Shown piece after piece: positions 18,034 to 45,220 of a stretch of 64,000 bases of DNA. The translations under genes were made by a program, and so were the position numbers. The notes under the pieces are model-generated. The model had not been told where the DNA came from. It made no database searches and saw only the letters and a list, made by a program, of their open reading frames with translations. This stretch comes from a virus (Duplodnaviria > Caudoviricetes): the IMG/VR virus record IMGVR_UViG_3300032312_002284, positions 1 through 64,000 of that record; one strand, written 5' to 3'. The first letter of the stretch is position 1, and each line of letters opens with the position of its first letter.

Positions 18034-19071
18034 ATGTGTTTAATAAATTTAAATATAGTAACTGGCGAACCTCCATACACTATAGAGGTTTGTGATTATT
18101 TTGGTATTAATTGTCAAGTAATTGGATATTATGACTATTATATACCAGGTACTTTAGTACTATCAGTTCCTGAACCTTATAGTTCGGCTCCAATTGTATT
18201 ACTAAAAGTTTATGATGCTAATGGATGTATTAGCCAAGGTACTCTAACTATGCTCACCCCAACTCCGGCATCAACGGTTACACCATCACCACAAAGTCCT
18301 ACTCCAACACCTACAAATACAACTACACCAACTGTTACTCCGTCAAAACAAAGTCCGACACCAACCCCAACTAATACTCCAACCCCACAAAGTCCGACAC
18401 CAACACCCACAAATACGCCAACTAAAACAGTTACACCTACTAAGACAACAACCGTAACCCCAACAATAACTGTTTCGCCATCATTAACACCAACTTCATC
18501 TCCATTACCACCAAATAAAGCATTTTTATTTATTGAGCCTCAATCTGGTAGTACAAGTATTGGACAATGGATGTTTAATAATGGTCAAACATTTTATGGA
18601 TTTACAAATGGTTCAGCTCCTGCATTAAATCAAAGTATTTTTAATAATCAATTAAATACTTATGTTAATTTCTCAGGGTGGACCTCAGGATTATTTCCAT
18701 CGATTATAAACCAAGATGTACCACAAACAACTGGTGGAAATGATTCATTTGGTAACGCAATTGTTGCATATAATTTTAAAACAACCCAAGTTTCGGCTAA
18801 CACGGTATCAGGTAAAGCTTGGTACACATGGATGATACCAACAGGGATGACTAATGGATTATATCAAAAGAAAATAGATTATAGTACCTCAAGTCCTTCT
18901 ATGCCTCCTACGACAGTAAATACTGAGCCTACAATTTATTCATATTATTTTAATTATACTGGAAACACAATACCTAAGACAACATATAGGGTGTATACGA
19001 CTTACCCATCAACAAATTTTAATTTATTAAATACTTCTGATATATATTTCAAAGGAAACTCAGTAAGTTAA
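18034..19071 (+). CDS. Modular virion protein: Cys-containing N-terminal module, Thr/Pro linker, C-terminal domain
   Basis: N-terminal ITG.PPY.I.VCD..G.NC module shared with 33215 and 44996; PT-rich tract at about 18258-18510. Confidence 0.65.
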   Translation: MCLINLNIVTGEPPYTIEVCDYFGINCQVIGYYDYYIPGTLVLSVPEPYSSAPIVLLKVYDANGCISQGTLTMLTPTPASTVTPSPQSPTPTPTNTTTPTVTPSKQSPTPTPTNTPTPQSPTPTPTNTPTKTVTPTKTTTVTPTITVSPSLTPTSSPLPPNKAFLFIEPQSGSTSIGQWMFNNGQTFYGFTNGSAPALNQSIFNNQLNTYVNFSGWTSGLFPSIINQDVPQTTGGNDSFGNAIVAYNFKTTQVSANTVSGKAWYTWMIPTGMTNGLYQKKIDYSTSSPSMPPTTVNTEPTIYSYYFNYTGNTIPKTTYRVYTTYPSTNFNLLNTSDIYFKGNSVS

Positions 19072-19083
19072 TAATTATAGTAT

Positions 19084-22000
19084 ATGTCTACGTTCCCATA
19101 TAAAAACCCAATAAGTTCAGAACAACTAAACGGAGTACAATCTGTTGAAAGGTCTGAAACATTTGGAACAAATTTTTCTGTACTTGGTGTTGGTGGTTAC
19201 ATGGAGGTATTTAATCGCACTGATTTAATTTACACTATACCGCCATCAACATTTGGGCCAATTGAGTATAGTGGTAATACCATACCAATTCAATTTACAA
19301 AAGGTACTGGAACGGTGTTCTCACCTGATGTTTTAACTCTTAATTCTGATAACATATCTTCGGGAAGGAGAAGGTTAGGTATGTTAGCTTATGTTTATGA
19401 AGACGACCAAGTATACCAATTCAGAATTGATAATTACGAATCATTATGGTCTGCGGTAACTGCAACTACTGCAATTACATTTTATGATTTTGGAACCACA
19501 ATTAATAGTACAACTGTTGCGGGTAGGAATTTTATTAATGCTTGGACTGCATCAACTATTGAAGATGTAAACGGGGCGACACACTCATCTGCTGTATGGA
19601 AAAAATATAGTACAGGTAGTGGTAGTGGTTCCACATCTGCTAATACCTTGTATATTACAGGTACAGGAATTAACTCAACTGTAAGGTGTGGGGTTAATAA
19701 TACAGCTGCGGGTGATTTTGGAGGGGCTCTTGCGGGTTCAGGTAATACCGCTTCAGGTAAATATAGTTTTGCTGGTGGAGGAAAAAATAACACTGCGAGT
19801 AATTGTTATTCTACTGTAGGAGGAGGATATTTAAACACTGCAAGTGGTGATACATCAACAATTGCCGGTGGTTGTAATAATATCGCAGGTGGAGCTATTT
19901 CATTCATAGGTGGGGGACGATTGAACATCGCAAGTAATAATTACTCAACCATAGGTGGAGGTACTGAAAACACCGCAAGTGGTAGTTATTCAACCATAAG
20001 TGGAGGGTATGTAAACACCGCAAGTAGTGAATACTCAACCGTGGGTGGTGGATGTCGTAACACCGCAAGTGGCTCGTGGTCAACCATAGGTGGGGGACGT
20101 CGTAACACCGCAAGTAATACTTACTCAACCGTAAGTGGTGGATATTATAACACCGCAAGTGGTAATACTTCAACAATTAGTGGGGGATATTGTAATATTA
20201 ATGGAGGGGACTTTTCATTTATTGGGGGAGGTAGATGTAATACTATGTTAGGTTTAACTGGTGGAATTATTGGAGGAGGATATAATAACACTGTTAGTAA
20301 TAATTATTCAGTTATTGGAGGTGGATGTGGTAACACCGTAAGTGGTTATATTTCATTTGTTGGTGGTGGGTCAAGTAATACCGCAAGTGGTGGTTATTCA
20401 ACCGTAGGTGGGGGAAGATTTAATACTGCAAGTAGTAATTACTCAACCGTAAGTGGAGGATATTCTAACACCGCAAGTGGTGATAGGTCAACTGTCAGTG
20501 GAGGGCAATCTAACACCGCAAGTGGAAGTAGGTCAACCGTAAGTGGAGGAGATAATAACACCGCAAGTAATTATTACTCAACCGTAAGTGGAGGATATTC
20601 TAACACCGCAAGTGGTGATAGGTCAACTGTCAGTGGAGGGCAATCTAACACCGCAAGTGGATGTACATCAACAATTTCAGGTGGTTATTTTAATAACGCA
20701 TTGAGTAACAACTCACACGTACTTGCAGGTCAAGGTAACGTAGTATATTCACAAGGTGCAACCATTTTAGGTGGTAATTTAAATAGTATAGCTAATACTA
20801 ATAATAGTTCAACATATTCTATTTACTGTACCGATTCTGGTACAGGTATAATTTATATAAACGGAGGAGACCTGACACCGGAATTAGTTAATGGTAATAC
20901 ATTTTATTATTATCATAATATTGATAATAGAGTTTATAAAGGTTATATTACATCATCAACCTATTCAGGTAATTATACTGAACTTCAGGGAATATATGCA
21001 GGTACAGCTAGTTCATATGGTAGTTTTGGTAGAAATTATAGTGATATAGTAACAAACAATTCTTGTAATTCAGTAATAGCTGGAGGAAATAGTAATACTA
21101 TTTGTGGAAATTCACCTTATTCATTCATTGGTGGTGGACAAAGTAACACCGCAAGTAGTTATTACTCAACCGTAGGTGGTGGAAAAGGGAATACCGCAAG
21201 TAGTGGTGGGTCAACCGTAGGTGGTGGACAAGGGAATACCGCAAGTACTTCTCAATCAACCGTAGGTGGTGGACAAAATAACACCACAAGTGGTGATAGG
21301 TCAACCATAGGTGGTGGATTTCTTAACACCGCAAGTGGTTCTTTTTCATTTGTTGGTGGAGGACAAAGAAACACCTCAAGTGGTGGTACATCAACAATTG
21401 CCGGAGGATGTAAAAATATCGCTGGTGGTAACTTATCATTTATTGGGGGAGGTAGTGGTAACACCGCAAATGGGATATATTCAACCGTAGGTGGTGGACT
21501 AAATAACACCTCAAGTGGTAATTTTTCATTTGTAGGTGGAGGAGGGAATAACACATCAGGTGGTATTGGTTCATTTGTCGGTGGTGGTCAGTTTAACACC
21601 TCAAGTAATTGTTACTCAACCGTAGGTGGTGGACAAAATAACACCGCAAGTGGTAATACATCAACAATTGCCGGAGGATGTGGAAATATTACAGGTGGAG
21701 CGTGTTCATTCGTTGGTGGAGGACAACTAAACACCGCAAGTGGTGATAGGTCAACCATAGGTGGTGGACTACTAAACACCGCAATTGGTGATAGGTCAAC
21801 CATAGGTGGTGGATTTCTTAACGCCACAACTGGTGATAGGTCAACTGTTAGCGGAGGATATAAAAACAGCGCAAGTAGTACGGGTTCAACTGTAGGTGGA
21901 GGACAGTTTAACAGCGCAAGTGGTGATAGGTCAACCATAGGTGGTGGATTTCTTAACACCGCAAGTAATTTTTATACTACCGTAGGTGGAGGTCAATGTA

Positions 22001-23790
22001 ACATCTCAAGTTGTGTTGATTCAACCGTGAGTGGAGGACGTAATAACACCGCAAATGGTCCTAGGTCAACTGTAGGTGGAGGTCAATGTAACACCTCAAG
22101 TAGTAATTATTCAACTGTTAGCGGAGGAGCGAATAACACATCAGGCGGTATTGGTTCATTTGTCGGTGGTGGACTATATAATATTGCTAATTGTAACCAA
22201 TCAACCGTGAGTGGTGGTGCTTGTAATGTCTCAAATGGTAGTAGGTCAACCATAAGTGGAGGTTATAAAAATAATGCCTCAGGCAATTGTTCGTTTGTTG
22301 GTGGAGGATTTTTTAACACTGCAAGTAATACTTATTCAACCGTAAGTGGTGGACGTGGTAACACCGCAAGTGGTAATACATCAACAATTGCCGGTGGTTG
22401 TAATAATATCGCTGGTGGTAAGTTATCATTCATTGGGGGAGGTAGTGGAAACACCTCAAGTAATTGTTACTCAACCGTAAGTGGTGGTAGACAAAACACC
22501 TCAAGTGGCCAATATTCATTCATAGGTGGTGGATGTAGTAACACCGCAAGTGGAATTAGGTCATTCGTAGGTGGGGGTAGTCTTAATATTGCTTCAGGTG
22601 ATACATCATCAGTTTTAAACGGAAATACTAACATTGCTGGTGGCGGATGTTCAACAGTTTTAAATGGGTTAAGTAATAACACTGTTGGTTGTTCCTCATT
22701 TATAGGTGGAGGTTTACTAAATAGGACAACAACTAACGCATCATTCTCATCGGTTGTTAACGGACAATCAAATTGTAGTGACGCTTGTTTTACGTCAATT
22801 GTAGGGGGTGTTAGTAACTGTATAACTGCGTCAAACTGTTACTCTTCAATTGTTGGTGGTAAATCTAACGTAATATGTAGTACCTCAAACTGTTCATTTA
22901 TAGGTGGTGGAACATTAAATATTGCTGCGGGACAATCATCATCTGTTGTTGGGGGTAGTTCAAATACTGCACTTTGTTCTTGTTCTTTTGTCGGAGCAGG
23001 ACAGTTTAACTCATCTTGTTCTGTATTTTCATTCATAGGTGGTGGACAATGTAACATAGTAACAGGTACAACTTCAGCAATTGTGGGAGGTTTTTGTAAC
23101 AGAGCTCAAGGTATATATTCTTTTGTCGGAGCGGGAACAGGTAATACTGTTACAGGAGCTTACTCATCGGCAATTGGTTGTGGATTAAATGCTACCGCTA
23201 GTTGTACGTTATATGCTAATAATATTTTTGCTTGTGGTTCATTAAATGTTAGAGGGTTAAGTGTGTTATCTGCAACAACAGGAACAAGCTTAACTGTTAT
23301 TAGTTCGGGTAATAGCACATCGGTACCTGTATTCTCAGTCCAAGGTTCACAAGGTGAATTGTTTAGTGTTACAGATAGTTTAACAGGTTCGTTATTCTCA
23401 GTAAGTGACATATCAGGTTTACCAATATTGGAAGTATTCTCAGATAGTACAATAATACTTGGTGATTACCAAGCTCCGTCACTTTATACAACAAAACGTG
23501 TTTCATCAATTACTGCGACAACAGGTACCACAATTTATTCATTTCCAACAAGTGCTTACACTTCGTCATTTGTTGATTATTTTGTTAGTGGTTCAACAGG
23601 ATTAAGAGCTGGAAATATGATGGTAATATGGAGTGGTAGTACAGTTAACTTTACTGAAACTTCAACTAATGATATTGGAGTTACAACTCCATTGACGTTT
23701 GGTTATACAATATCAGGGTCAAGTGCCGTTTTACGAGCGTCAGCATCAACAGGTACTTGGATTGTGGAATCAATATTAAGAGGATTATAA
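19084..23790 (+). CDS. Long tail-fibre/adhesin-like protein 1 with 15-aa Gly/Ser repeats
   Basis: Dozens of NTASGxxSTVGGGxx repeats (beta-solenoid, similar to trimeric adhesin heads); distinct non-repetitive N- and C-terminal domains. Confidence 0.75.
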   Translation: MSTFPYKNPISSEQLNGVQSVERSETFGTNFSVLGVGGYMEVFNRTDLIYTIPPSTFGPIEYSGNTIPIQFTKGTGTVFSPDVLTLNSDNISSGRRRLGMLAYVYEDDQVYQFRIDNYESLWSAVTATTAITFYDFGTTINSTTVAGRNFINAWTASTIEDVNGATHSSAVWKKYSTGSGSGSTSANTLYITGTGINSTVRCGVNNTAAGDFGGALAGSGNTASGKYSFAGGGKNNTASNCYSTVGGGYLNTASGDTSTIAGGCNNIAGGAISFIGGGRLNIASNNYSTIGGGTENTASGSYSTISGGYVNTASSEYSTVGGGCRNTASGSWSTIGGGRRNTASNTYSTVSGGYYNTASGNTSTISGGYCNINGGDFSFIGGGRCNTMLGLTGGIIGGGYNNTVSNNYSVIGGGCGNTVSGYISFVGGGSSNTASGGYSTVGGGRFNTASSNYSTVSGGYSNTASGDRSTVSGGQSNTASGSRSTVSGGDNNTASNYYSTVSGGYSNTASGDRSTVSGGQSNTASGCTSTISGGYFNNALSNNSHVLAGQGNVVYSQGATILGGNLNSIANTNNSSTYSIYCTDSGTGIIYINGGDLTPELVNGNTFYYYHNIDNRVYKGYITSSTYSGNYTELQGIYAGTASSYGSFGRNYSDIVTNNSCNSVIAGGNSNTICGNSPYSFIGGGQSNTASSYYSTVGGGKGNTASSGGSTVGGGQGNTASTSQSTVGGGQNNTTSGDRSTIGGGFLNTASGSFSFVGGGQRNTSSGGTSTIAGGCKNIAGGNLSFIGGGSGNTANGIYSTVGGGLNNTSSGNFSFVGGGGNNTSGGIGSFVGGGQFNTSSNCYSTVGGGQNNTASGNTSTIAGGCGNITGGACSFVGGGQLNTASGDRSTIGGGLLNTAIGDRSTIGGGFLNATTGDRSTVSGGYKNSASSTGSTVGGGQFNSASGDRSTIGGGFLNTASNFYTTVGGGQCNISSCVDSTVSGGRNNTANGPRSTVGGGQCNTSSSNYSTVSGGANNTSGGIGSFVGGGLYNIANCNQSTVSGGACNVSNGSRSTISGGYKNNASGNCSFVGGGFFNTASNTYSTVSGGRGNTASGNTSTIAGGCNNIAGGKLSFIGGGSGNTSSNCYSTVSGGRQNTSSGQYSFIGGGCSNTASGIRSFVGGGSLNIASGDTSSVLNGNTNIAGGGCSTVLNGLSNNTVGCSSFIGGGLLNRTTTNASFSSVVNGQSNCSDACFTSIVGGVSNCITASNCYSSIVGGKSNVICSTSNCSFIGGGTLNIAAGQSSSVVGGSSNTALCSCSFVGAGQFNSSCSVFSFIGGGQCNIVTGTTSAIVGGFCNRAQGIYSFVGAGTGNTVTGAYSSAIGCGLNATASCTLYANNIFACGSLNVRGLSVLSATTGTSLTVISSGNSTSVPVFSVQGSQGELFSVTDSLTGSLFSVSDISGLPILEVFSDSTIILGDYQAPSLYTTKRVSSITATTGTTIYSFPTSAYTSSFVDYFVSGSTGLRAGNMMVIWSGSTVNFTETSTNDIGVTTPLTFGYTISGSSAVLRASASTGTWIVESILRGL
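19699..23190 (+). repeat. Coding tandem 45-bp (15-aa) repeat array, in two blocks
   Basis: Recurring aacaccgcaagt...tcaaccgtaggtggtgga units; near-exact 88-bp duplication at about 20439-20526 and 20574-20661 (offset 135 = 3 units); interrupted at about 20797-21057. Confidence 0.9.
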
Positions 23791-23791
23791 T

Positions 23792-26204: not shown

Positions 26205-29200
26205 ATGGCAAACGAATTTAATATAAAAAATGGTTTTATAACCAGCGGAAACTCTGTTGTTTATGCGGGGTTAAATGTAACGAGTGGATTAACCGCAACA
26301 ACAATATCTGCAACAACTTATTTTAACTTACCATCTTCAAGTGGTGGAACATTTACAGGAGGAACTGTATCAGGGGGAACTAACTTCACAGGTGGGGTTA
26401 CTGCAAATACAGTATCACAGGTTAATTATATTGACTTTACAACAGGGTCAACAAATCCATCTCAAACAGGGGGAAGAATGTTCTTTGATAATGTATCAAA
26501 TGCTCTTTCTTATTATGATGTGGACAATAGTTTAGTACCAATTGCGATGGGACAACAACTCTACACAAGAGTTTATAATGGTACAGGAGTTCAGATTGAT
26601 AAGGGTAAAGTAATTACAATTACTGGAACAACTATTGGTTTACCGAGTATAAGATTGGCGACCAATAATCACACATTACAAAGTCCAAGACCTGTTGGAC
26701 TTGCGGCTGAGAACATACCGAATGGAGGTACAGGGTTAGTTTTAAATAATGGCATTTTAAGTGGAATAACACTTAACACATTTGCAAATGGTGATACGTT
26801 ATACCTTTCTGATACAATTCCTGGTGAGTATGTTAATTCAACATCGTCATTATCTTTTACGGCAAGAACAAATGAAATTGGATATGTTCTTCAAACAGGT
26901 ACAACGACAGGTAAGATTTATGTTAATATCAATAATGAAGATAGTAATCTAACTCTAACGGATATTGAAAGAAATATCTTGGAGGGTAATGTCATTTCAG
27001 GTGGTGTTTATGAATACACTGGAATGACTCAGGGTACGGGTCAAACAATTAACGTTGCATATGCTAGAGGATGGATTGTTAAAAATACATATTCATTTGC
27101 AACATTACCTGATGTAACCAATGTTTATTATTCAGGTGGAACAAACATACCTTTAACATATTTGAATAGTGCAGATGCAACATATATTTTAATTAATAGT
27201 GCATCAACACTCTATCAACAAACGTCATTTCCAACACCACAACAAAGAAGGGAAAATATATTTCTTGGTAAGGTAGTTCATCCAAATAGAAGTACGATTA
27301 CATCAATTAACCAAACGGTTGACTTTGATGTATCTCCTATGGCAGCACTTCGTGACTTGTGGACACCATTAAAATTAATTAATCAGGGTGTTATTGTTTC
27401 ATATTATAGTGCGGGTACGATGAGCATTCAGACATCTGCCGGAACATTATGGGGTAATGGTATTGGGTGGACGACGAATCAATTAAATCCTGATAGTATT
27501 TCCATTTCAGGAACATCACCAACCACATTTCAATATCGTTCAAGATTAGGTCCTATTACAGGTTCAACATCAAACCCTGGTGACCCAGCGGCACCAACTG
27601 GAAATACAACAACAATTGATTCTCACCATTATGACTTAAATGGTAGTATTGTTCCTGTAGGTGGTAATAACAGGGCAACAAATCAAAGGATTTATTTGTT
27701 TCCAACTGGGTTAATTAGAATACAGTATGGTCAGTTTTCATATTCAAGTATGGCAAATGCTATTGCTGGTATAGATACTGAAATATTCGTTGAATACGGG
27801 AATAATAGAGATAACGGTATATTAATAGGTATATTAACGGTTCGTGAAGATGCCTCTGACTTATCGTTAACCACCGATGCTCAATTTAGGTTTGTATCAA
27901 AATTTGGTGAGTTATTAGCCGGCGCTGGAGGTATATCAACAACAACTTTACAACAAGCATATGAAAATTCAGCAACACCTGAAATAGTAACAAATTCAGC
28001 AGAAGGAGCATTATCAATCCAAAATGGAACGGGAGCTGCGGATAATGTAACAAATTTATTTGAGGGTAGAAATACCGCAACATCACTCACATCATTCATT
28101 AGAGCTGATGGAGCGTTTTCAGGAACTTCAATATTTGGAACAGGATTAACTGCGACTACAATATCTGCAACAACTGCAACGATAAGAAAAATTACAGGTG
28201 GTTCAGGTAATACCAATTCAGGAACATATTCATTTATAGGTGGGGGTCAATCAAATTCGGCAACAGGTAATTGTAGTGTAGTTGGTGGAGGACGACAAAA
28301 CACCTTGAGTGGGTCATATTCATTTATTGGTGGTGGACTTTGTAACACAGCAAGTAATAATTGCTCAACCGTAAGTGGAGGATATAAGAACACTGTACTA
28401 AGTACGTCATCATTTATTGGTGGTGGAAGATGTAATATCTCCAACATTGCTGGAGGAGGTAACACTAATAGTGATGTTATTGTTGGAGGTATCTCTAACT
28501 CAACATCATCGGGATATTATGGAGTTGGTCAAAATTTTATCGGAGGTGGAGTTACAAATTCCATATGTGGTGATTATAATGTTGTTGTGGGTGGGGGTGG
28601 AAATTCTGTAAATGATATATCGGAATATTCGGCGATAGTCGGAGGATATAACAATAAGATTTGTTTTGCACCTTCTTACTCACAATATTCTGTGATTGGT
28701 GGTGGAGAGTCAAATGTATTATCCGCAACTCATAGTTTTATTGGTGGAGGAGAATTGAATACTATTTCAGGATTTACTTGTTATTCTGTAATTGGTGGTG
28801 GTTTTTGTAATAGAGTTACGTGTAATTTATCAAGTGTCGCGGGTGGGGTTTTAAATAGAATATCAGGTCAAAATTCATTTATTGGAGGTGGAAGTGGTAA
28901 TACTGTTTCAGGTCAATATTCATTTATTGGTGGAGGATGTAATAACATTACAAGTGGTAATACATCAACCGTAGGTGGAGGACGATGTAATATTGCAAAT
29001 GGAGCGTGTTCATTTATTGGTGGAGGTCAGTTTAACACCGCAAGTAGTACGGGTTCGACCATAGCTGGAGGACTTTGTAATATTGCCGGTGGAGCGTATT
29101 CATTTGTTGGTGGAGGTACGGGTAATACGATGAGCTCATCTACAACTTGTTTTAGTTCAATAAGTTCAGGTGTTAGAAACAATGTTGCTTGTCGTCATTC

Positions 29201-31026: not shown

Positions 31027-31086
31027 TTATTGGTTTTCTATTTACCAAAAATATTCTTAAATTATTTTTTTAAAAAAAAATTAATT

Positions 31087-31977: not shown

Positions 31978-32341
31978 AATAGAAGTTAAATCATCCCCAA
32001 TCCATGGGTTTGGTGTCTTTGCAACCGAAAAGATTTTAAAAAACGAGATAATTGAAACTTGTTATTCAATTTTCTTCAAAACCAATTTGGGTTATAATGA
32101 TGATATATTATTAAAATATCGTTTCTCATATCCTTGTGGTTCGGCTCCAATAAAGTATGCAATACCCTTAGGATACGGATGTATCTATAATCATAGTGAT
32201 GATAATAATGCGACATGGACGTGTGATTCAGACAATGGTATGTATTATTTCATTGCTGTAAGAGACATTGAACCAGGTGAAGAAATTTGTACATCATATG
32301 GAAAAAAAGAATATTGGGAATCAGTAAAAAAAATATATTAA
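31955..32341 (+). CDS. SET-domain methyltransferase
   Basis: SPIHGFGVFATEKI...IYNHSDDNNA...AVRDIEPGEEICTSYG (GxG, NHS and GEExxxxY motifs). Confidence 0.9.
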   Translation: MNIPIPNKIEVKSSPIHGFGVFATEKILKNEIIETCYSIFFKTNLGYNDDILLKYRFSYPCGSAPIKYAIPLGYGCIYNHSDDNNATWTCDSDNGMYYFIAVRDIEPGEEICTSYGKKEYWESVKKIY

Positions 32342-32343
32342 AA

Positions 32344-33168
32344 ATGGAAAAATTATTTTTTCAGAGTTCACTACCACGAGCAGGTAGTACTCTACTACAA
32401 AACATTTTAGCTCAAAATCCTAACATATACGCAACACCGACAAGTGGTGTTTTAGAATTAGTGTACGCAGCTAGAGCAAACTATAGTAATTCACCTGAAT
32501 TTAAAGCTCAGGACCCTGAACTTATGAAAAATGGATTTTTATCTTTTTGTAGAGAAGGATTGAAAGGTTTTTATGAAGGTGTAACTGATAAAAAGTATGT
32601 GATTGATAAAAGTAGAGGATGGGGAGTCCATTATGGATTTTTACAACAAATTGTTGATAAACCAAAAGTTGTTTGTATGGTGAGAGACCTTAGAGATATC
32701 TATACCTCTATGGAAAAAAACTTTAGAAAAAATCAACACAAAGATTTTGGGATTGTAAATCATTCTGATTTAACAGGTACATCAACACCTAAAAGAATAG
32801 ATATTTGGGCAAATTCCCAACCAGTTGGAATGGCAATTGAAAGACTTCAAGAAATTTTTAGACAGGGTATTAATGAAAATATTATGTTTGTTAAGTATGA
32901 AGATTTATGTTTGTATCCCGATTTAATCATGAGAAAAATTTATGAATATTTTGAAATACCTTATTTTGAACATGATTTTGAAAACATTGAACAAATAACA
33001 AAAGAAGATGATGAAGTGTATGGTATTTTTGGAGACCATAAGATAAAAAAGACTTTGGAGTTGTTACCGTCAGATTCACAAAAAATTTTAGGGCCGGATG
33101 TGTGTGATTGGATTTATAATAATTATGGGTGGTATAATGAAATTTTTAAGTACCCTAAAAATATATGA
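32344..33168 (+). CDS. PAPS-dependent sulfotransferase
   Basis: 5'-PSB loop LPRAGSTLL, DKSR, 3'-PB MVRDLRDIYTS, VKYEDL; start moved to the ATG at 32344. Confidence 0.88.
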   Translation: MEKLFFQSSLPRAGSTLLQNILAQNPNIYATPTSGVLELVYAARANYSNSPEFKAQDPELMKNGFLSFCREGLKGFYEGVTDKKYVIDKSRGWGVHYGFLQQIVDKPKVVCMVRDLRDIYTSMEKNFRKNQHKDFGIVNHSDLTGTSTPKRIDIWANSQPVGMAIERLQEIFRQGINENIMFVKYEDLCLYPDLIMRKIYEYFEIPYFEHDFENIEQITKEDDEVYGIFGDHKIKKTLELLPSDSQKILGPDVCDWIYNNYGWYNEIFKYPKNI

Positions 33169-33214: not shown

Positions 33215-35584
33215 ATGAGTTGCTATATAACAATATCAAATATAACTGGAGGACCTCCATATGAAATTACAGTTTGTGACAATTATGGGAATAATTGTTT
33301 TTTAGCAGCGTACGAAACATCATATGTTCCCCCAACAATTTATGTTAATATCCCATCAGATTGGTCATTACTACCATTTGTTCAAGTGAGTGTCCAAAGT
33401 TCAGAAGGATGTGAACAATTACAATTTGTTCAAACAACCCCAACACCTACACCATCCCCTACATCAACACCTGTTGTACCAACACCAACACCAAGTATTA
33501 CTGCAACTATAACTCCAAGTATTACACCTTCAAAATCTATTCCGATACCACCTTATTTTCAGGTTCAAAATATTAATGGTGCAAACCCTCAGTCAATAAC
33601 TTTAAATGCTAAATTAAATAGTAAATTTATCGTAGATTTTGGAGATGGTTCGTCTCCAATAAATTATTCAATTACTAATCCTTCTTACACTGGCTCTACA
33701 AATTTAGTTGTTTTAAGTAAAAGTTATTTACCTTCAGATTATATTACAACAATATATGATTTAAGATATGGTTCACCTACTTTTCCAAATTCCGCTGACG
33801 GTTTAAGGGATATATATGTGGATAAAATATCTGAAATTTTTGTGAATGATTATACCTTTACCGCGTTTACTAGTTTAGACGGAATATATATTACTAATTC
33901 TACTGTCGATACTTTTAAATTTGCATTGACAAATGCCTTTGATGTTTTTACTTATCAATACAACTCGGCAACTACTTTTAATTTTGAAATATTAAATCCG
34001 ACATCTATTACTCAGTTACAGAATGTTTTTTATCGTTATAATAATTTTACTTCGGCGACTATTAATTATTCGGGATATACTACAGCTTCACGACCTGCCA
34101 GAATAGATATTGTCGGGAATTTAAGTTTAACAAATCTTAACTTTGCTCCTCCCCAAACGGGTGGTGTTTTTTTTATATCTGAAAATGCTCAATTAAATGA
34201 TATAAATTTTATAACACCATTAAGTTCGAGCACTACAGTTTCAAGAATTGACTTACACGCGAATCGTTTTACAGGGTGGACAACAAATTTCCCAACACAA
34301 GTTTCCAGAATTGATATGGAACAACAACAGGGTGGACTTAGTTTAGGGGTTAATTCATTTAAATATTTCTCACCTAATTTGTCAAATAATACTGGTTTAA
34401 CACAATTGAATTTATATACCAATAGTTTAACTAGTATTACTGAAACTATATCAGGTTGCACATCATTAACCGATTTAAGAGTTGATAGAAACCAATTAAA
34501 GACCCTACCACCTATACTTCCAAATTCTATCACTGACCTAACCGCTAATAGTAATTATTTTACAGGGTATACTTCTAATTTCCCAACGTCCATGAATTAC
34601 TTTAATATTAATAAAGGGACTGGGAACCCTTCATTACCTACTTGGAATGTTGAAATTACGGGAGCAACAAATTTACAAACATTTTTGGCTAACTCTGTTG
34701 GACTAACTGCGTGGACTAAAAATTTCCCAACCTCAATTGTGACTATAGATTTTAGTGAAAATAGTCTCACCTCATTCCTTAATTCAATTTCAGGAAACAC
34801 AAGTTTAGTTACACTATCTCTTAATAATAATAATTTAATTTCAATCCCCCCAATTTTTCCTAACTCCATTCAAACATTAAGATTACAAAATAATGATTTA
34901 ACGGGTTATACTAGTAATGTTCCAACATCTTTAGTGACCTTCTCAATTGAAAATCAATTTGTGATTGGTAACTATATACCTGAATGGACTCAAGAATTGA
35001 CAGGTTCCACAAATTTGAATTCTTTTGATATAAGTAGAGTTGGACTAACTGGATGGACTAAGACTTTCCCATCTTCAATACGAACAATCGATTTTAATGG
35101 TAATAATCTTACTAATATTAATTTTGGATTAATGACAGGGGCGACTAATATTGATTTAGGTGGTAATTTGACTTTAAGTGCTGCGACTAATTTAAGTGCG
35201 GTTACAAATTTAGTAACTCTGTCCTTGGACTCAACTGACTTTAAAAATTCGTCAGATATTATACAAGGAAATTTTCCTAAAACTCTGAAAAATTTTGATA
35301 TCAGTATTTCTACTAATTTATCAGGATGGACTAATTCTTTTTCGGCTCTTACAGGTTTTACTTATGGGTATTTTTTTAGGACAAATTTAAAAACTGCTGC
35401 GGTAGATTTCTTGTTAGAAGATTTTTATAAATTAGCAACCGCTAATACATTAACAAATAAAACTTTATTATTTACTGGAACGTCAATCCCACAACCTGAA
35501 TCCCCGACAGGAGGTTTATCTAACCCATATTATTTGGCTCTAAAAAGTTCCCCATACAATTGGACAGTAACTGTTAAACCATAA
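33215..35584 (+). CDS. Modular virion protein: N-terminal module, PT linker, PKD-like domain, leucine-rich repeats
   Basis: ITGGPPYEITVCD module; VDFGDGS; LRRs such as LTDLRVDRNQLKTLPPILPNSITDL and LVTLSLNNNNLISIPPIFPNSIQTLRLQNNDL; TATTTAT at 33202-33208. Confidence 0.75.
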   Translation: MSCYITISNITGGPPYEITVCDNYGNNCFLAAYETSYVPPTIYVNIPSDWSLLPFVQVSVQSSEGCEQLQFVQTTPTPTPSPTSTPVVPTPTPSITATITPSITPSKSIPIPPYFQVQNINGANPQSITLNAKLNSKFIVDFGDGSSPINYSITNPSYTGSTNLVVLSKSYLPSDYITTIYDLRYGSPTFPNSADGLRDIYVDKISEIFVNDYTFTAFTSLDGIYITNSTVDTFKFALTNAFDVFTYQYNSATTFNFEILNPTSITQLQNVFYRYNNFTSATINYSGYTTASRPARIDIVGNLSLTNLNFAPPQTGGVFFISENAQLNDINFITPLSSSTTVSRIDLHANRFTGWTTNFPTQVSRIDMEQQQGGLSLGVNSFKYFSPNLSNNTGLTQLNLYTNSLTSITETISGCTSLTDLRVDRNQLKTLPPILPNSITDLTANSNYFTGYTSNFPTSMNYFNINKGTGNPSLPTWNVEITGATNLQTFLANSVGLTAWTKNFPTSIVTIDFSENSLTSFLNSISGNTSLVTLSLNNNNLISIPPIFPNSIQTLRLQNNDLTGYTSNVPTSLVTFSIENQFVIGNYIPEWTQELTGSTNLNSFDISRVGLTGWTKTFPSSIRTIDFNGNNLTNINFGLMTGATNIDLGGNLTLSAATNLSAVTNLVTLSLDSTDFKNSSDIIQGNFPKTLKNFDISISTNLSGWTNSFSALTGFTYGYFFRTNLKTAAVDFLLEDFYKLATANTLTNKTLLFTGTSIPQPESPTGGLSNPYYLALKSSPYNWTVTVKP

Positions 35585-35631: not shown

Positions 35632-37731
35632 ATGATGTTTGTACCACCATATAATTATTTAGTATCCAACTGTTGTGATGGTAATCAATATATCATCAAT
35701 ATGCCAAGTGGTGGACAACCCGGTGAAATGTGGTATATTGAATCGGTTGAGGGTGTTAATTTTTGTTTTATAATTGAAAATTTAATTGGACCATCCTCTT
35801 CAGGATATGATTATGGAGCAAATACTGCGAGTATAGTTTTAAATGCACCGGCAGTATGTGGTTCCGCACCGGGTTTTTGTTGTGCGGCTTCAACACCTAC
35901 ACCTACACCAACCAAGACTAAAACACCAACCCCTACACCTACTAAGACTAAAACACCAACTCCAACTAAAACTAAAACACCAACCCCGACTAAAACACCA
36001 ACTCCAACAAAAAGCCCAGCGTTATCCCCAATGGCGACGTTGACTCCTACTCCTACCCGAACTCCTACTTTAACTACTACTCCTACAGTTACTCCTTCAT
36101 TGTCGGTATCAAGGACTCCGTATCCTGAAGTGACATATAGCTCAAGACCATCAGGTAGAAATGAGTGTGATGTAATTACAATTTACCCAATGGAGGTACA
36201 ATGTCAGGTAGTTCAAGAACCTTCAGGTATCGGGTATAGTGATGGAATTGTTTCGTTATTGATTACTGGAGGAACTGCCCCATATACCATACAATGGTCT
36301 AATGGGCAAACATCTCAAACATTAAATGGTATATCTTTTGGTTCATATATTGCAACTGTTACTGATTATTATAACGATTTTACAACAACAATTACTTGTG
36401 GATTTAATATACCAACACAAACCCCAACTTCATCTATTACTCCAACACCAAGTATTACAAGTACGGTTACTGTAACCCCTACGAAAACGCCAACACCTGG
36501 TCTATCTCCAACAATGACTCCAACCAATACCCCGACACCTTCAGTTAGTCCAAGTTTTGGAGCTCCATTGACCCCAACACCTTCAATAACTCCATCGATA
36601 AGTTCGGGATTTGTTTCTGATTTGTGTATGTCATTTACGTATTGTAAACAATCTTATACTATAACTTTTGTTCCAAATGGAACTTATAATTCGTATAATA
36701 CTTGGATATCTCAAAATGGACAATATACAATAATATATAATGGAACTAATTGGTCGTTAACAGGATTACCTGTTTGTGGTAACTTAACACCATTAATCAT
36801 TTCTAACGCTTCTCCATCATCTATCCCAACAACAGGATGGTCATTCTTGGGTGGAGGAAATAGTACTGGCGGAACTATAAGAGTTACTTTAGGTGATTGT
36901 GTTACTTCTCCATTATCTTTAAGTGTTAGTAAAACTGATTCTTGTACAAATAATGGTACAATATTAGCGACGGCTACAGGTGGATTGTCTCCGTATACGT
37001 ATTCAATTAATAATATAACTTATCAAAATTCGCCATTATTTAATAATTTAGTTTCAGGAAATTACACATTATATGTTCAGGATAGTCTTGGTAACGTTGT
37101 GAATGTTGGAGTTACAATTTCACAATTATCTTCTCAGAATTATGTTGTGAATTTATATGCGGATGGATTACCATTCGGTAATTATTTGTCAACTAATTGG
37201 TCAGCTCAACCTGGGTCTTTATTTACTACACCAATTACAAATGGTAGAAATGGTATAATAACAATAAACCCGGCATTACCTAATGGTGTGTATATTGAGC
37301 TTGATATCGAGTATTCCGAAGCAATAACTCAAAGTCCGATATACCCAATTGAAACACACGTTACATGGGATACGACTGAAACAGTAGTTAATGGATTATT
37401 AACATTAGTACCAACTAATGGACCTACAACAAATAACATTGTAAATAACGGTTCGTGTGGGGGAGCATTTAGTGCGGTATCTACAGTGACAAATGTAAAG
37501 AATTACTCTTCAGTACAAATTTATAATACTACAAATATTGATTTATCATTATCTATCACTAGTCAATTTATAAGTCAAAATGTTGGTTCGTTGATTTGTA
37601 AAGAAAAATTCTCATACCTATTAAAATACACCATTAGAAATGTTAAAATCTACGGAGCTAGTTGTGCTACAGTAACAATTGGTAATAATAACTTTGGTGC
37701 AACTGCCAATTACGGAGTTCAGTTTTTCTAA
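35632..37731 (+). CDS. Modular virion protein: CC module, PT linkers, SprB repeats
   Basis: YLVSNCCDG; PTKTKT/PTPT tracts; SDGIVSLLITGGTAPYTIQWSNG; NNGTILATATGGLSPYTYSIN; TATTTAT at 35617-35623. Confidence 0.7.
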   Translation: MMFVPPYNYLVSNCCDGNQYIINMPSGGQPGEMWYIESVEGVNFCFIIENLIGPSSSGYDYGANTASIVLNAPAVCGSAPGFCCAASTPTPTPTKTKTPTPTPTKTKTPTPTKTKTPTPTKTPTPTKSPALSPMATLTPTPTRTPTLTTTPTVTPSLSVSRTPYPEVTYSSRPSGRNECDVITIYPMEVQCQVVQEPSGIGYSDGIVSLLITGGTAPYTIQWSNGQTSQTLNGISFGSYIATVTDYYNDFTTTITCGFNIPTQTPTSSITPTPSITSTVTVTPTKTPTPGLSPTMTPTNTPTPSVSPSFGAPLTPTPSITPSISSGFVSDLCMSFTYCKQSYTITFVPNGTYNSYNTWISQNGQYTIIYNGTNWSLTGLPVCGNLTPLIISNASPSSIPTTGWSFLGGGNSTGGTIRVTLGDCVTSPLSLSVSKTDSCTNNGTILATATGGLSPYTYSINNITYQNSPLFNNLVSGNYTLYVQDSLGNVVNVGVTISQLSSQNYVVNLYADGLPFGNYLSTNWSAQPGSLFTTPITNGRNGIITINPALPNGVYIELDIEYSEAITQSPIYPIETHVTWDTTETVVNGLLTLVPTNGPTTNNIVNNGSCGGAFSAVSTVTNVKNYSSVQIYNTTNIDLSLSITSQFISQNVGSLICKEKFSYLLKYTIRNVKIYGASCATVTIGNNNFGATANYGVQFF

Positions 37732-39946: not shown

Positions 39947-40539
39947 TGTCAAAAAAAGAACTTAAAAACAATCCTAAAATATTAGGGTTAGATGTGTCTA
40001 CTAAAACAATAGGTTGGGCACTCTTTGATTTACAAACTAAAGAGTTATTAGAATTGACTCATATCTCTCCACAACCTAAACCTAAATCAGAAGACAAAAT
40101 AGAAGAACTTCTTAAAAAATCTGACTTGTTTAAATTGAAATTAGACCAATATAAAAATTTAGGAATTGTTAAAGTTGTAATTGAAGAACCATTACTTAAT
40201 TCAAATAATGTGTACACAATAGGAACTCTATTAAGATATAACACTTTAATAACTAAAGAAGTTTACGATGTGTTAGGAATTGTACCTGAATACATATCCA
40301 CATATAACTCTAGAAAAAACGCATTTCCTGAATTGGTTAAAGAAAATGATAAAGGTAAATTTGTTTTGTTCGGAGGTTACCCTAAAGACATAGATAAAAA
40401 ACAAGTCATATGGGAATTGGTTGCAAAACGTGAACCCCAAATAACTTGGTTATATACAAGAAACAATACATTAAAGAAAGAAAACTTTGATATGACAGAT
40501 GCTTATACTGTGGTATTAAGTTATTTTAATTCTAAATAA
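39946..40539 (+). CDS. ruvC: RuvC-like Holliday junction resolvase
   Basis: ILGLDVSTKTIGWA, VVIEEP and DMTDAY carry the RNase H-fold catalytic residues. Confidence 0.85.
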   Translation: MSKKELKNNPKILGLDVSTKTIGWALFDLQTKELLELTHISPQPKPKSEDKIEELLKKSDLFKLKLDQYKNLGIVKVVIEEPLLNSNNVYTIGTLLRYNTLITKEVYDVLGIVPEYISTYNSRKNAFPELVKENDKGKFVLFGGYPKDIDKKQVIWELVAKREPQITWLYTRNNTLKKENFDMTDAYTVVLSYFNSK

Positions 40540-40558
40540 AAAAAAACTAATAAAATTT

Positions 40559-40584
40559 AAGGGTCCTAATTGGACCCTTTTTTT
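40559..40584 (+). terminator. Intrinsic terminator between convergent genes
   Basis: AAGGGTCC-taatt-GGACCCTT then a T-tract; A-rich upstream flank could make it bidirectional. Confidence 0.8.
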
Positions 40585-40619
40585 ATTTAATGTGTTGTGT
40601 AAACTACGATTTATTATGT

Positions 40620-43600
40620 CTATGAAGGACAGTTTGGTGTGTCAGTTATATTCGATGCTACCCCAAAATAGTTACCTGTGAATACAATATCTGCAGGATA
40701 GTTAGGGTTCCAACCTGGAATTACATTTATAAATGTTACTTTTTTACCTTGTGAAGGTGAAGTTGGTTGAGATGTAAATCCTTGACCTAAGTTAACATTC
40801 AATACTGGTTGAGATTGTATAACAATAATAGGACTTAATGGGTAACTTCTACAAACTCTGTATATGTAAGTATATAATTGTGAGGATGGTGTTGGGGTTG
40901 TTGTTTTAGTTGGAGTAGGTGTAACCGTATTAGATGGGGTCACTTGAGGACTAACACCTGGAGTACAGAAAACACAATTTAACAAATCTCCTGACTCTAT
41001 TGAAGTTAACGTATGAGTAGGTGCTTGTGATACACTATCTAAATAAGTAACACAATAACTTATATTATTTATGAATACTGAAATTATACCACCTATTGGT
41101 ATGTCTCCTAAACTTCCTGTTACATAAAATATTTGGTCAGAATTACAGTCAGACAATTTTTTAGAAATTGGACATAATAAATTTTGTTCAAACGAATTAT
41201 AGGTAACAGAACCTGATAATGGTACGTTATATGGAATAGGACTAGTTGTCGGAGAAGGTGTTGGTGTTTGTGATACTGAAATAGTGAAAGTAGTAGCTGA
41301 AACATCTACTGATTTGCCATAACAATATTGAGTTGGTGTAACAGTTGGAGTTGGAGTTAATGTAGGTGTGGATGTGACGGTATTACTTGGAGTTAATCCT
41401 GGGTAAGTTGACCCACCAATTGAACAATCAAATAATGCTTCGAAATAAAAATCAGAACATGTGTTATCAGATGGTGAAGGTGTTGGTGTAATATAACCAG
41501 TATAAAGTATGTCATCACATAAATCAGGACAAATACTATAACAAGGACTTTTACCTTCAAGGATACAGGATTCTCCTAAATTTGTTGACAAACACCATCT
41601 GGTATTTGCTGAACTATAATATATAAAATATTCGTTAGAAGGATTCCAAAAATAAGCTTCACTGTTATATTCACCATATTGTAAATATACACCATCATAT
41701 TGAGTATATAATGGGTCATTGGTGTATAATGTATACACTTGTTGAGGACAAATTGTGTATGTCGTTGGAGTAACCGTTGGAGTAACTGTTGGTGTTGATG
41801 TATTAGTTGCGGTTGGTGTTGGTGATTTAAAACTAATTCCTGTTTTAGTTGGTGTTGGAGTTGGTGTAAATGACGCTGTAACAGTTGGACTTTGAGATGT
41901 TGGTGTAACAGTTGCGGTTGGAGTTTTAGTTGAGGTTGGAGTTTTAGTTGGGGTCGCGGACCTTGGAGGTGTATTTGAAGGAGTGACTGATGGTGTAACT
42001 GATGGTGTAACAACGATTGGAGTCGTTGAAAATATTTTAGATGGAGATGATACTCCACCACTACTACAAATTGCCTCGGTATATACATAAACTGGACCTG
42101 TTACGTACCCTCCCATAACAATACTAGCGGGTGAACTACAGCCAACAGTACTTGGAGTATAACTAATTCCGTCAAATGAATAATAAACTGTTACTGATGT
42201 ACAATTAACTCCTGCTCCTGACCAAAATACAAAAAACGCATTTGGTGGGGTATGTAGTACTACATTAGTTATTACAGGTGATATACAAACAGGTGAAGGT
42301 GTGACTGTTGATGTCTTAGTTGGAGTTACAGAAGCTTTAACAGGAAATGGAGTACTTGTTGCAGTTTTTGTTGGAGTGATAGTTGGTGTCGTAGTTGGAG
42401 ACGCTCCAAATTTTGGGGTTGTTGATGGAGTTATTGAAGTAGTTGGACTTGGAGCGACTAATCCTGGAGTTCTTGTTGGGGTTGGGGTTTTAGTTTGAGT
42501 TGCGGTTTTAGTTGGTGTTGGACTACCGGGTATTGGAGCTGGTGCTGGTTCTGGATTATTTTCTAAGTCAGTTAGGGATATTGTATTACACGCAACTAAT
42601 GATGCTGCGCCTGCATTAGCTACAGTTGACCCTTGAGGGGTTGTTGACCAACTACCTAAATTATATGTTAATTGTAAAATTGGCCCTGAACCGCGGTATA
42701 GATAAACATTACCCCCCTTCATAGCAATTCCGTATATGTCAGAATATCCAAAACTGCCTCCAGAGTTTGTATAACCACCAACTAATACCTCAACTTCAAT
42801 ATTACCTGTTGAACTATATTGTCTTATATAAAAAAATTCATCATCATTTGAGGGATTATATTGATATTCTGAAGTAATATATTTACCATTTGATAATATT
42901 AAAACGTCACCATTTAAAGTTGAATATAATCCGTTACCTAATGTGAATAATGTGGTAACAATTGGAACAGTTGGTATCAGGTTTGCCCGATATAAAACCC
43001 CATCAGATTCAAATACTACATTATTGTCGTCTATGGCGTCAAACCCTGCCCCTATAAAAAAACCGCTAGGTAAAGTTCTGGAGTCTACAAATTGTAAAGT
43101 TTGTTTATTATATCTTGAAATTACAAACGAAGCATAACCAAAAAAGTAATTTTGAGAAACCGCTAAATCAGCAGTTGGAGGAGTACCCCCAACACACGCA
43201 CCAACTAAAGAGGTTGTCTCAGTTATTGGATTATTCAGGTAAATACTGCCTGCAAAATTAACATATATTGGACAAGTGTCAGTTCCTGAAGATGGTGTTA
43301 CTGTTGGTGTTTTTGTTGGTGTTTTTGTTGGTGTCTTTGTTAAAGTTTTTGTTGGTGTCGGTGTTGGTGTTTTTGTTTTTGTTGGTGTTGGTGTTGGCGA
43401 TGTACATATAATACTTTCAGATGATAAACAATTTGCGCAATCATTTGTTCCATATTTTGTTATTGTAGTTGAAGCAACTGTTGGAGGTCCATATAAAGGT
43501 AATGTCCCATTGAATACTGTTGAAAATGAAATAAGAACAAAACAACTTGTAATCTCAGTACCTAATGACAAGTTTTTGATTGACATATGTACCGTCATGC

Positions 43601-44996
43601 CGACTGTAGGGACCACACCTTGACCAACCCAGTTAACCCCTGTTACTTGATAATTAACACTTGAACAACATTCTTGTAGAATGTAGTATGCGTTTTTATT
43701 AACAGGTGTTGGTGTTAGTGTTGGTGTTACGGAAGGTGAAACTGGTGATGGTGGGGAAACAGGGTTATTAATTAAATATTGTAATGTTACAGTATTACAA
43801 GATGGACTGGATGAACCAGCGCCTGAAATATTTTGACCATTAGCTAAGTTAAATTGAAACGTGACTTGCCAAACAGTCCCACTATAAGTTAATCTATAAA
43901 CAGAATAACCATTTATTAGATATAAGTTATTACCTTGAGTTGCAATACCTTCAACCTGAGTTAATCCCAAGTTTGTTAGGTTTATTGTATTTTGTAGTAC
44001 TCCTGAACCATTATACTCATTTAAATACTTTACACCTGAGCCACTTGTCACAGACATTATGTATGTGTTTGAAGATGTCTTGATTAAATCACCAGTAATT
44101 GAATATCCTGCAGGTAATGAAAATAATAATGTATTACTTGCGGTCGAAGTACTTACGTTTAATGAGTAAATTGAATTACTTGAATTACAAATTAATACGT
44201 TTTCACTCACACTTGCTAAACCTCTACCAAGAGTAATCGTTGTCGATATTGTATTAATTAATTGTAAATTTGACTTGTTATATCGATATATTACATTTCC
44301 TAAATTGGATGTGTAAATATAACTTGTTGTTACCGCAATATCATTTGAAGTTAATGCCGGATTTAAAGTACCTAAAAGAGAATATGTATTTGCACTAGGA
44401 TTGATTGTTGTAATCCTATCTGCATTTGCATCAATTAAATATATTGTACAATCAACATAACCTGGTGGTGGACTTGTTGATGGTGTTGGTGTTTGTGTGG
44501 GTGTTTTGGTTGGGGTCTTAGTTTGTGTTTTAGTAACTGTTGGAGTCTTAGTTTTTGTTGGGGTAACTGTTTTAGTTGGTGTTGGAGTTTTAGTTTTAGT
44601 TGGTGTTGGAGTTTTTGTTGGAGTTCTAGTTGGACTCGCAGCTGGACCTCCTGAATCTAAACAAATTGTAATTTCATCTTTACAAACAGCACAGCTAGCA
44701 CAAGCATAATTAAAACTTGGACATGGTCCATAACCACCACTACCTACAAATCCAGTCCAAGTGTATGTTGAAAGAGATGGATTAGGTCCTGGAAGTGAGG
44801 ATACAATTATTCCACAATCACCTGCTGGGAAACCTGTACTTACAATCGTATATACTTCACCTATTCCAACAGTTATAGTATCGCCTAAGTAATTAGTATA
44901 ATCAGGAATACCGCTAGGGGCGTAAAGAACATACTGAGTTTGAGATACTCCTACGCAACATCTAACAATTTTATAATAACCTGGTAATAAAGCCAT
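40620..44996 (-). CDS. Large modular adhesin-like virion protein (1458 aa): CC modules, two beta-propeller-like domains, PT linkers
   Basis: YKIVRCCVG and YILQECCSS modules; internally duplicated ~230-aa domain; at least seven PT-rich tracts. Confidence 0.7.
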   Translation of the reverse strand: MALLPGYYKIVRCCVGVSQTQYVLYAPSGIPDYTNYLGDTITVGIGEVYTIVSTGFPAGDCGIIVSSLPGPNPSLSTYTWTGFVGSGGYGPCPSFNYACASCAVCKDEITICLDSGGPAASPTRTPTKTPTPTKTKTPTPTKTVTPTKTKTPTVTKTQTKTPTKTPTQTPTPSTSPPPGYVDCTIYLIDANADRITTINPSANTYSLLGTLNPALTSNDIAVTTSYIYTSNLGNVIYRYNKSNLQLINTISTTITLGRGLASVSENVLICNSSNSIYSLNVSTSTASNTLLFSLPAGYSITGDLIKTSSNTYIMSVTSGSGVKYLNEYNGSGVLQNTINLTNLGLTQVEGIATQGNNLYLINGYSVYRLTYSGTVWQVTFQFNLANGQNISGAGSSSPSCNTVTLQYLINNPVSPPSPVSPSVTPTLTPTPVNKNAYYILQECCSSVNYQVTGVNWVGQGVVPTVGMTVHMSIKNLSLGTEITSCFVLISFSTVFNGTLPLYGPPTVASTTITKYGTNDCANCLSSESIICTSPTPTPTKTKTPTPTPTKTLTKTPTKTPTKTPTVTPSSGTDTCPIYVNFAGSIYLNNPITETTSLVGACVGGTPPTADLAVSQNYFFGYASFVISRYNKQTLQFVDSRTLPSGFFIGAGFDAIDDNNVVFESDGVLYRANLIPTVPIVTTLFTLGNGLYSTLNGDVLILSNGKYITSEYQYNPSNDDEFFYIRQYSSTGNIEVEVLVGGYTNSGGSFGYSDIYGIAMKGGNVYLYRGSGPILQLTYNLGSWSTTPQGSTVANAGAASLVACNTISLTDLENNPEPAPAPIPGSPTPTKTATQTKTPTPTRTPGLVAPSPTTSITPSTTPKFGASPTTTPTITPTKTATSTPFPVKASVTPTKTSTVTPSPVCISPVITNVVLHTPPNAFFVFWSGAGVNCTSVTVYYSFDGISYTPSTVGCSSPASIVMGGYVTGPVYVYTEAICSSGGVSSPSKIFSTTPIVVTPSVTPSVTPSNTPPRSATPTKTPTSTKTPTATVTPTSQSPTVTASFTPTPTPTKTGISFKSPTPTATNTSTPTVTPTVTPTTYTICPQQVYTLYTNDPLYTQYDGVYLQYGEYNSEAYFWNPSNEYFIYYSSANTRWCLSTNLGESCILEGKSPCYSICPDLCDDILYTGYITPTPSPSDNTCSDFYFEALFDCSIGGSTYPGLTPSNTVTSTPTLTPTPTVTPTQYCYGKSVDVSATTFTISVSQTPTPSPTTSPIPYNVPLSGSVTYNSFEQNLLCPISKKLSDCNSDQIFYVTGSLGDIPIGGIISVFINNISYCVTYLDSVSQAPTHTLTSIESGDLLNCVFCTPGVSPQVTPSNTVTPTPTKTTTPTPSSQLYTYIYRVCRSYPLSPIIVIQSQPVLNVNLGQGFTSQPTSPSQGKKVTFINVIPGWNPNYPADIVFTGNYFGVASNITDTPNCPS

Positions 44997-45220
44997 TAAC
45001 TTACATTAAAATTATTAATTATCACACAACCATAGACATCAATTAATTTGATAATATAATTACTTTGAGTATCAAATGGTTGTGGTATTATAAAATTATA
45101 TGGTAATTGAGAATCGGTAATTTGATTAATATAAATACAAGTTGTTTGTGAAGTATCACAAAGATATACATCATACGGAGTTGACCCCGTTATATTATTA
45201 ACCGTAACTTGAACTGCCAT
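44996..45220 (-). CDS. Stand-alone copy of the N-terminal module (74 aa)
   Basis: VNNITGSTPYDVYLCDTSQTTC...IKLIDVYGC is homologous to the N-termini of 18034 and 33215; TAATG coupling to the 1458-aa gene. Confidence 0.75.
   Translation of the reverse strand: MAVQVTVNNITGSTPYDVYLCDTSQTTCIYINQITDSQLPYNFIIPQPFDTQSNYIIKLIDVYGCVIINNFNVS

Follow-up and report, generated by a model that had tools for sequence, protein, structure and literature searches.

The window analysed here is the first 64 kb (positions 1 to 64,000) of an 86-kb virus contig, IMG/VR record IMGVR_UViG_3300032312_002284, which has an estimated completeness of 29% and a G+C content of about 30%. Its source is an uncultured giant freshwater phage whose relatives are called jumbo myophages. 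The contig carries exactly three copies of a module of about 72 amino acids (aa), located at 18034-18249 and 33215-33433 on the plus strand and at 44999-45220 on the minus strand. Copies A and B head larger proteins that end in distinct domains, here called payloads, whereas copy C is a protein by itself. The three loci include the following features, with hidden Markov model (HMM) E values given where available.

18034..18249, plus strand: module copy A, residues 1-72 of a 345-aa protein (alignment; HMM 5e-36)
18250..18519, plus strand: Pro/Thr/Ser linker of protein A, 90 aa, residues 73-162 (translation)
18520..19071, plus strand: C-terminal payload of protein A, about 183 aa, without known family
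33215..33433, plus strand: module copy B, residues 1-73 of a 789-aa protein (alignment; HMM 1.3e-37)
33434..33547, plus strand: Pro/Thr linker of protein B, 38 aa, residues 74-111 (translation)
33548..35584, plus strand: payload of protein B, a PKD-like motif VDFGDGS (residue 140) and then leucine-rich repeats (LRRs)
44996..45220, minus strand: module copy C, a free-standing 74-aa protein (translation; position conserved in relatives)
40620..44996, minus strand: 1458-aa mosaic protein with several Pro/Thr (PT) linkers, directly downstream of copy C (translation)
45233..45260, minus strand: promoter-like site upstream of the gene for copy C, by consensus match only
40559..40579, between the convergent RuvC-like and 1458-aa genes: bidirectional terminator-like hairpin of 8 base pairs, G+C-rich, with T-runs on both strands

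A preliminary description of this DNA had proposed that three proteins share a module with three conserved cysteines, and the open reading frames (ORFs) are as it described them. Alignment of the three copies over about 72 residues reveals 11 invariant positions (T11, G12, P15, Y16, C21, D22, C28, P40, P46, G64, and C65). Pairwise Smith-Waterman scores are 148, 87, and 78, compared with a mean of 27 (standard deviation 5.5) for shuffled sequences, which corresponds to z values of 21.9, 10.6, and 9.4, and none of 1000 shuffles reaches the observed score. With the 74-aa protein as the query, a six-frame search of the 86-kb contig recovers the other two copies at E values of 6.5e-6 and 3.9e-5. 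No fourth copy was found in the contig with an HMM of the three copies, for which the next best match has an E value of 0.13.

The suggestion that a PT linker leads into unrelated payloads in two of the proteins also holds, given the linkers of proteins A and B listed above. The payload of protein A has no Pfam match at E ≤ 1, and the single weak PHROG match of this protein falls on the linker. Protein B had been thought to combine a PKD domain with LRRs. The latter part of this assignment stands (Pfam LRR_8 at 1.4e-6, also LRR_4 and LRR_1; phrog_21719 at 2.5e-15), whereas no PKD domain is called by Pfam in the 789-aa protein, which has only the motif VDFGDGS. One related payload does match PKD_4. 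In a tree of module sequences, copy A forms a starred clade with its orthologues P0019 and P0020, and copy B forms another with P0016, P0018, and the stand-alone 74-aa family member P0021. Copy C is represented by 10 clusters of 74-aa orthologues with 68-97% identity.

The profile of the three copies was scored against 1.84 billion representative proteins, and at a cut-off of E ≤ 1e-3 the family comprises 512 clusters at 50% identity. Member statistics are based on the best 150 of these 512 clusters, minus eight that were set aside, leaving 142 members. The eight are Bacteroidota repeat adhesins, which have one strand motif in common with the module, and C2H2 zinc-finger proteins that mimic TGxxPYxC. 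Giant multi-repeat matches (P0017, P0023, P0055, P0061, and P0074) were rejected as Bacteroidota adhesins in which a strand motif of about 20 aa is repeated, each individual match being non-significant. Multi-finger eukaryotic proteins yield false positives with summed E values down to 1e-11 because TGxxPYxxxxC mimics the zinc-finger linker TGEKPYxC. Sequence matches in the PDB were dismissed as spurious, since they consist only of C2H2 zinc-finger proteins (CTCF) that align via the linker-like TGxxPYxC.

The module is N-terminal in all 142 members. It begins at residues 1-4 in 137 of them, and the other five have an in-frame Met precisely at the module start. One copy is present in 141 members and two copies in one. 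Stand-alone proteins (no more than 80 aa) account for 31 members and fusions (more than 135 aa, up to 1547 aa) for 72, with a PT-rich linker following the module in 49 of the latter. All 117 copies in 80 IMG/VR loci start no more than 17 residues from the longest possible ORF start, and at least two copies lie within 20 kb of each other in 36 of these loci. Near-complete phage genomes of 223-309 kb carry two to four copies each, and the same number is found in complete genomes of 256-309 kb.

No Pfam, PHROG or NCBIfam model matches the module when the 74-aa protein and the module parts are searched (Pfam at E ≤ 1), and sequence searches of the PDB yielded no relative. Every family member present in BFVD or the ESM Atlas is an uncharacterised viral protein. 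A pattern scan of limited sensitivity did not find the module in 185,579 prokaryote species genomes. By these sequence searches, the module is a large undescribed family that appears to be confined to uncultured phages.

AlphaFold2 predicts a six-strand beta-sandwich without helices, with predicted local distance difference test (pLDDT) scores of 81 from three sequences and 83 from 31 sequences. The predicted model has matches in VIA to domain 3 of EFF-1, DUF3244, C-terminal domains of the type IX secretion system (T9SS), and FN3 domains, all within the generic range (Z 6-7.1). The fold class is clear in the model, a beta-sandwich that is probably immunoglobulin (Ig)/FN3-like, without a specific relative. 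Members that lack C21 (P0070, P0106, and P0110) also lack C28, which suggests that these two residues form a disulfide. A fourth Cys is found no more than 14 residues after C65 in 96 of 130 members. The three copies in the window lack this residue, and C65 is therefore predicted to be unpaired in them.

Two motifs of the module, ITGxxPY and (K/V)xxDxNGC, recall SprB repeats (PF13573), with which it has the patterns GGxxPY and YxVxVxDxNGC in common. The SprB Pfam model itself does not match the module, even at E 1, and its gathering score is not reached. SprB repeats of the 735-aa protein encoded directly upstream of protein A were used to test the kinship. An hhalign comparison of the module profile with the nine SprB-type repeats of this same phage gives a probability of 82% (P 1e-5) over 59 columns, with the whole domain in register, whereas only the last strand aligns with Ig_7/PKD-like repeats of other proteins. 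In a second profile search, all 15 non-family proteins that were matched carry PF13573. On the strength of the motifs, the profile match, and the PF13573 proteins, our interpretation is that the module derives from the SprB-type Ig repeat, as a divergent form that is present in single copy and probably begins one strand later. The first strand of the SprB repeat, which contains a Cys, is absent from the module, and the module has its own C21-C28 pair. Furthermore, SprB repeats occur as tandem arrays in secreted Bacteroidota adhesins that end in a T9SS sorting domain, whereas the module is single, N-terminal, and found only in phages. The SprB repeats of this phage hint at a host among the Bacteroidota.

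Free copies are followed by a large gene on the same strand (193-1458 aa), mostly within a few nucleotides (nt), and the family of this gene differs between phages. The partner gene at the position of the 1458-aa gene is hypervariable among relatives. Across these relatives the module retains 40-56% identity and the neighbouring 727-aa protein 44-53%, while the downstream protein becomes unalignable. The free and fused arrangements also draw on common domains. Of 70 downstream partners of free copies, 23 have domains that recur in other phages as payloads of fused modules, and the strongest match reaches 57% identity over 187 aa (E 5e-65). Likewise, residues 904-989 of the 1458-aa protein have a match (E 7e-7) in a payload that another family member carries in fused form. 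The module tree requires at least 21 switches between free and fused states (shuffled mean 29.7), at least four of which are forced by well-supported branches.

P0021 is a payload-less, B-type 74-aa copy that retains all signature residues and is present on 18 contigs. Its position is syntenic with the 789-aa gene of the window, in a series of fibre, module, SprB/PT protein, 727-aa, and RuvC-like genes. Because P0021 remains intact on 18 contigs without a payload, the module by itself is maintained by selection and hence has a function apart from any payload. The gene arrangements as a whole indicate that fused and free forms interconvert repeatedly and are equivalent. The earlier interpretation is thus supported in part. 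Its core, a constant module, fused or free, with exchangeable payloads, has strong support across the family from a strictly N-terminal position, diverse payloads of binding type, recurrent fusion and fission, and the location of free copies beside variable large genes and tail fibres.

At the locus of copy C, the 74-aa and 1458-aa genes form a minus-strand unit flanked by the promoter-like site and the terminator-like hairpin. The stop codon of the first ORF and the ATG of the second overlap by 1 nt (TAATG). The preliminary description had regarded the two genes as coupled. The free copy and the overlap are real, although 1-nt overlaps are found at four of the 23 junctions of the neighbouring operon, and this overlap alone is therefore uninformative. 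Translational coupling as a sign of a complex was discounted for the same reason. A programmed frameshift that would join the two ORFs was also considered and rejected, since there is no slippery site and the junction spacing ranges from about -37 to +80 nt among relatives. A further reason comes from one close relative (L006:8830-9376), in which the 74-aa gene and the large gene that follows it are separated by an 81-aa ORF on the opposite strand, and thus the two genes need not abut.

The 1458-aa protein includes an internal Cys-containing domain of about 75 aa (…YNG..YW.G…IYY…WCLS..LGG.C.L.GK.PC) at residues ~1080-1160. The same domain forms the N-terminus of many proteins encoded downstream of free modules (loci L026-L068). 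In these mosaic proteins it is one more bead among those that are shuffled.

A subclass of about 100 aa consists of the module followed by an acidic/aromatic tail of about 25 aa with the motif FxFMDGxxYxFQ. Examples from relatives are L049:12281-12580, L073:3741-4028, and L066:11590-11895. In at least six loci, these forms are encoded directly upstream of proteins that start with MAFLTDRT...DTSQNPAGSSYKA. One protein of this type (L073:4060-6246) is a clear tail fibre, with matches to Peptidase_S74 (4e-18) and to a PHROG tail fibre (5e-33). The subclass looks like a two-ended adaptor. Among 64 fused members, most payloads belong to no family, and the others match LRR, DUF285, Laminin_G_3, PA14, PKD or cEGF. 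The families assigned by sequence are predicted binding modules, and none is an enzyme.

Gene context also connects the module with the tail. The first genes of the window encode baseplate wedge proteins of the gp25-like and gp6-like types (PHROG 3e-15 and 4e-20), and a plus-strand operon of very large proteins that has almost no gaps follows. Copies A and B lie inside this operon, which runs from the wedge genes through giant fibre genes and includes the following features.

15823..18030, plus strand: 735-aa protein with about seven SprB-type Ig-like repeats, directly upstream of protein A (Pfam SprB 1.4e-7; Hoc-like PHROG match)
19084-23790 and 26205-30803: two fibre proteins of about 1550 aa with 14-15-aa Gly-rich repeats (STVGGGxxNTASGxx)
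Between these two fibres: three paralogous proteins of 226-236 aa (phrog_24074 / phrog_8510, virion structural)
35632..37731, plus strand: 699-aa protein with a Cys-rich N-domain, PT linkers, and SprB repeats (Pfam SprB 1.9e-11)

The 699-aa gene is a conserved neighbour downstream of protein B, as judged by synteny with relatives. Genes for a SET-domain protein (1.2e-14) and a sulfotransferase (1e-17) are located at 31955-33168, within the fibre operon and directly upstream of the gene for protein B. The 315-aa ORF that precedes them (31030-31977) has no Pfam match at E ≤ 0.01. In three relatives (L062:10341-11585, L064:10273-11520, and L078:10236-11480), a 414-aa glycosyltransferase is encoded directly downstream of module genes. 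This protein belongs to the family of cytoplasmic polypeptide GlcNAc-transferases (PF11397, 8e-69), and its location next to module genes in several relatives is a hint that the Pro/Thr tethers are O-glycosylated.

We favour a model in which the module is a constant N-terminal anchor or adaptor for variable fibre or adhesin payloads, and we assign this reading a probability of about 0.5. The module is the only element common to proteins with unrelated C-termini, both in the window and family-wide, and no conserved C-terminal part that could act as an anchor instead was found in proteins with the module. An element that is the sole constant part, is confined to residue 1, occurs in fibre clusters, splits into its own gene, and survives without a payload follows the pattern known from phage receptor-binding proteins (RBPs), in which N-terminal parts act as anchors or adaptors. 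By this model, the module would fix the protein to the particle, most likely at the baseplate or fibre apparatus, and a flexible and possibly glycosylated Pro/Thr tether would hold out an exchangeable binding domain of LRR, lectin-like, PA14, PKD, beta-propeller-like or no known type. The free 74-aa form might be a separate adaptor, or a plug that fills a site beside the variable large protein. We infer the binding to virions, the identity of the binding site, and any contact between the free module and the downstream protein, and place the proteins in the virion by gene context. The labels 'adhesin' and 'virion protein' for the module proteins were likewise deduced from this context.

Precedents for such parts include the N-domain of T7 gp17, the K1-5 gp37 adapter, and the anchor-only 'truncated first RBP' of KP32/KP34-like Klebsiella phages (PMC6872550). 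As in the module family, the N-terminal part of these anchor/adaptor systems is constant while the binding part at the C-terminus varies, and the anchor can be fused or can be a separate small protein beside the variable gene. Payload-less, anchor-only genes persist both in Klebsiella phage RBPs (PMC6872550) and in the module family (P0021), and in both cases a genome can carry several differently loaded copies. No sequence or profile similarity to the T7 tail-fibre N-domain or to T4 gp10-like domains was found in Pfam or PHROG. The module differs from RBP anchors in being a predicted Ig-like sandwich of about 70 aa with conserved cysteines, and in having long Pro/Thr tethers rather than a rigid trimeric shaft. 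Moreover, its phages are uncultured freshwater jumbo myophages.

The preliminary description had likened the module to dockerins. This likeness is conceptual only and lies in payloads that can be exchanged behind a small, constant module and a flexible Pro/Thr linker. Dockerins are helical, have duplicated Ca-binding segments, and are mostly C-terminal, whereas the module is all-beta, N-terminal, and devoid of Ca-binding repeats. There is no dockerin match for the module in Pfam, and a neighbourhood census, the only search made, revealed no cohesin-like partner. By analogy, the anchor/adaptor systems of phage RBPs seem to be the closer counterpart. T4 Hoc and T5 pb10 also resemble the module proteins, in that small Ig-like domains and flexible linkers are found on known or putative virion surface proteins. 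T5 pb10 consists of an N-terminal anchor and a displayed domain. However, there is no sequence relation between the module and either protein, the module is found in a baseplate/fibre context and not with the head, and its payloads are large and variable.

Several observations weigh against an anchor or adaptor role. The neighbourhood census for a conserved docking partner gave synteny only, with primase-like, RuvC-like, and 727-aa genes. With just 24-45% identity among the three paralogues, it is not obvious that they would all dock at one site. Proteins encoded downstream of free modules have N-termini of several unrelated Cys-rich types, and this heterogeneity argues against one conserved interface between module and partner. 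Ig-like domains of phages are usually accessory adhesion domains and not anchors. Structure matches are in the generic range only (VIA Z 6-7.1; Foldseek E ≥ 0.04), and no cultured phage carries the module according to tblastn with three different modules against 50,697 phage records. As noted above, 1-nt gene overlaps are routine in this genome.

A rival explanation is that the module, at the free end of its protein, is an Ig-like domain with an accessory part in adhesion, with weak glycan binding like that of Hoc or BAM and with attachment by other means. The generic Ig/FN3-like fold, the kinship to SprB-type adhesin repeats, and the adjoining virion-type proteins with SprB repeats and a Hoc-like PHROG match all agree with this explanation. 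We nevertheless consider it unlikely, because the C-terminal parts are mutually unrelated and are themselves of binding type, leaving no other common anchor. In addition, free copies of 70-77 aa are abundant and conserved, although by this explanation they would have no route to the particle. Adhesion Ig domains of phages are also not normally limited to residue 1, as the module is in all 142 members.

A location on the head is more doubtful still. The module might be a capsid anchor like the N-terminal domain of T5 pb10, such that free copies serve as decoration or cement proteins and fused copies display adhesins on mucin-like tethers. This would explain why payload-less copies are common and conserved and how several paralogues could share many equivalent sites, and it is in keeping with the Hoc-like PHROG match of the upstream 735-aa protein. 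However, genes A and B are situated between baseplate and fibre genes and not among head genes, the ~100-aa forms are directly upstream of tail fibres, and a large gene of variable type consistently accompanies the free copies. We give even less weight to a helper without a docking role that would promote folding, oligomerisation or assembly of downstream domains, as either an intramolecular or a separate chaperone. Known fibre chaperones are downstream or C-terminal, as is Peptidase_S74 in the L073 fibre. The module is also set apart from its payload by a long and flexible PT linker, and it is improbable that a single domain could chaperone payloads whose folds are unrelated. A dedicated helper could nonetheless adjoin large fibre-like genes, as free copies do, and would be expected to undergo fusion and fission with them.

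The anchor/adaptor model can be taken further, although only as an unlikely speculation. Across a large clade of freshwater jumbo phages, the module could be the plug used universally for display on virions. It would have an N-terminally truncated Ig fold, without the first SprB strand, and would lock to a partner protein or to a site on the virion by strand complementation, through the conserved C65, or both. Any payload, whether fused or supplied by the adjacent gene, would be hung via mucin-like tethers that are possibly glycosylated or sulfated. Such a system would be a phage analogue of the cohesin-dockerin pair.

A constant N-terminal connector with exchangeable payloads is an established kind of system. 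What is undescribed is the domain family, its predicted Ig-like SprB-derived fold, the long mucin-like tethers, the frequent fusion and fission, and the restriction to uncultured jumbo phages. The 512 clusters constitute a new searchable domain family that is in no current library. If the module is indeed a connector, it would serve as a marker of the exchangeable proteins for host recognition and adhesion in hundreds of genomes of uncultured jumbo phages, in which fibre genes otherwise cannot be annotated. As a small portable tag, it could also be used to display proteins on such particles. It would further reveal how these phages keep a 70-aa head constant and swap the binding domains behind it by fusion, fission, and exchange of cassettes.

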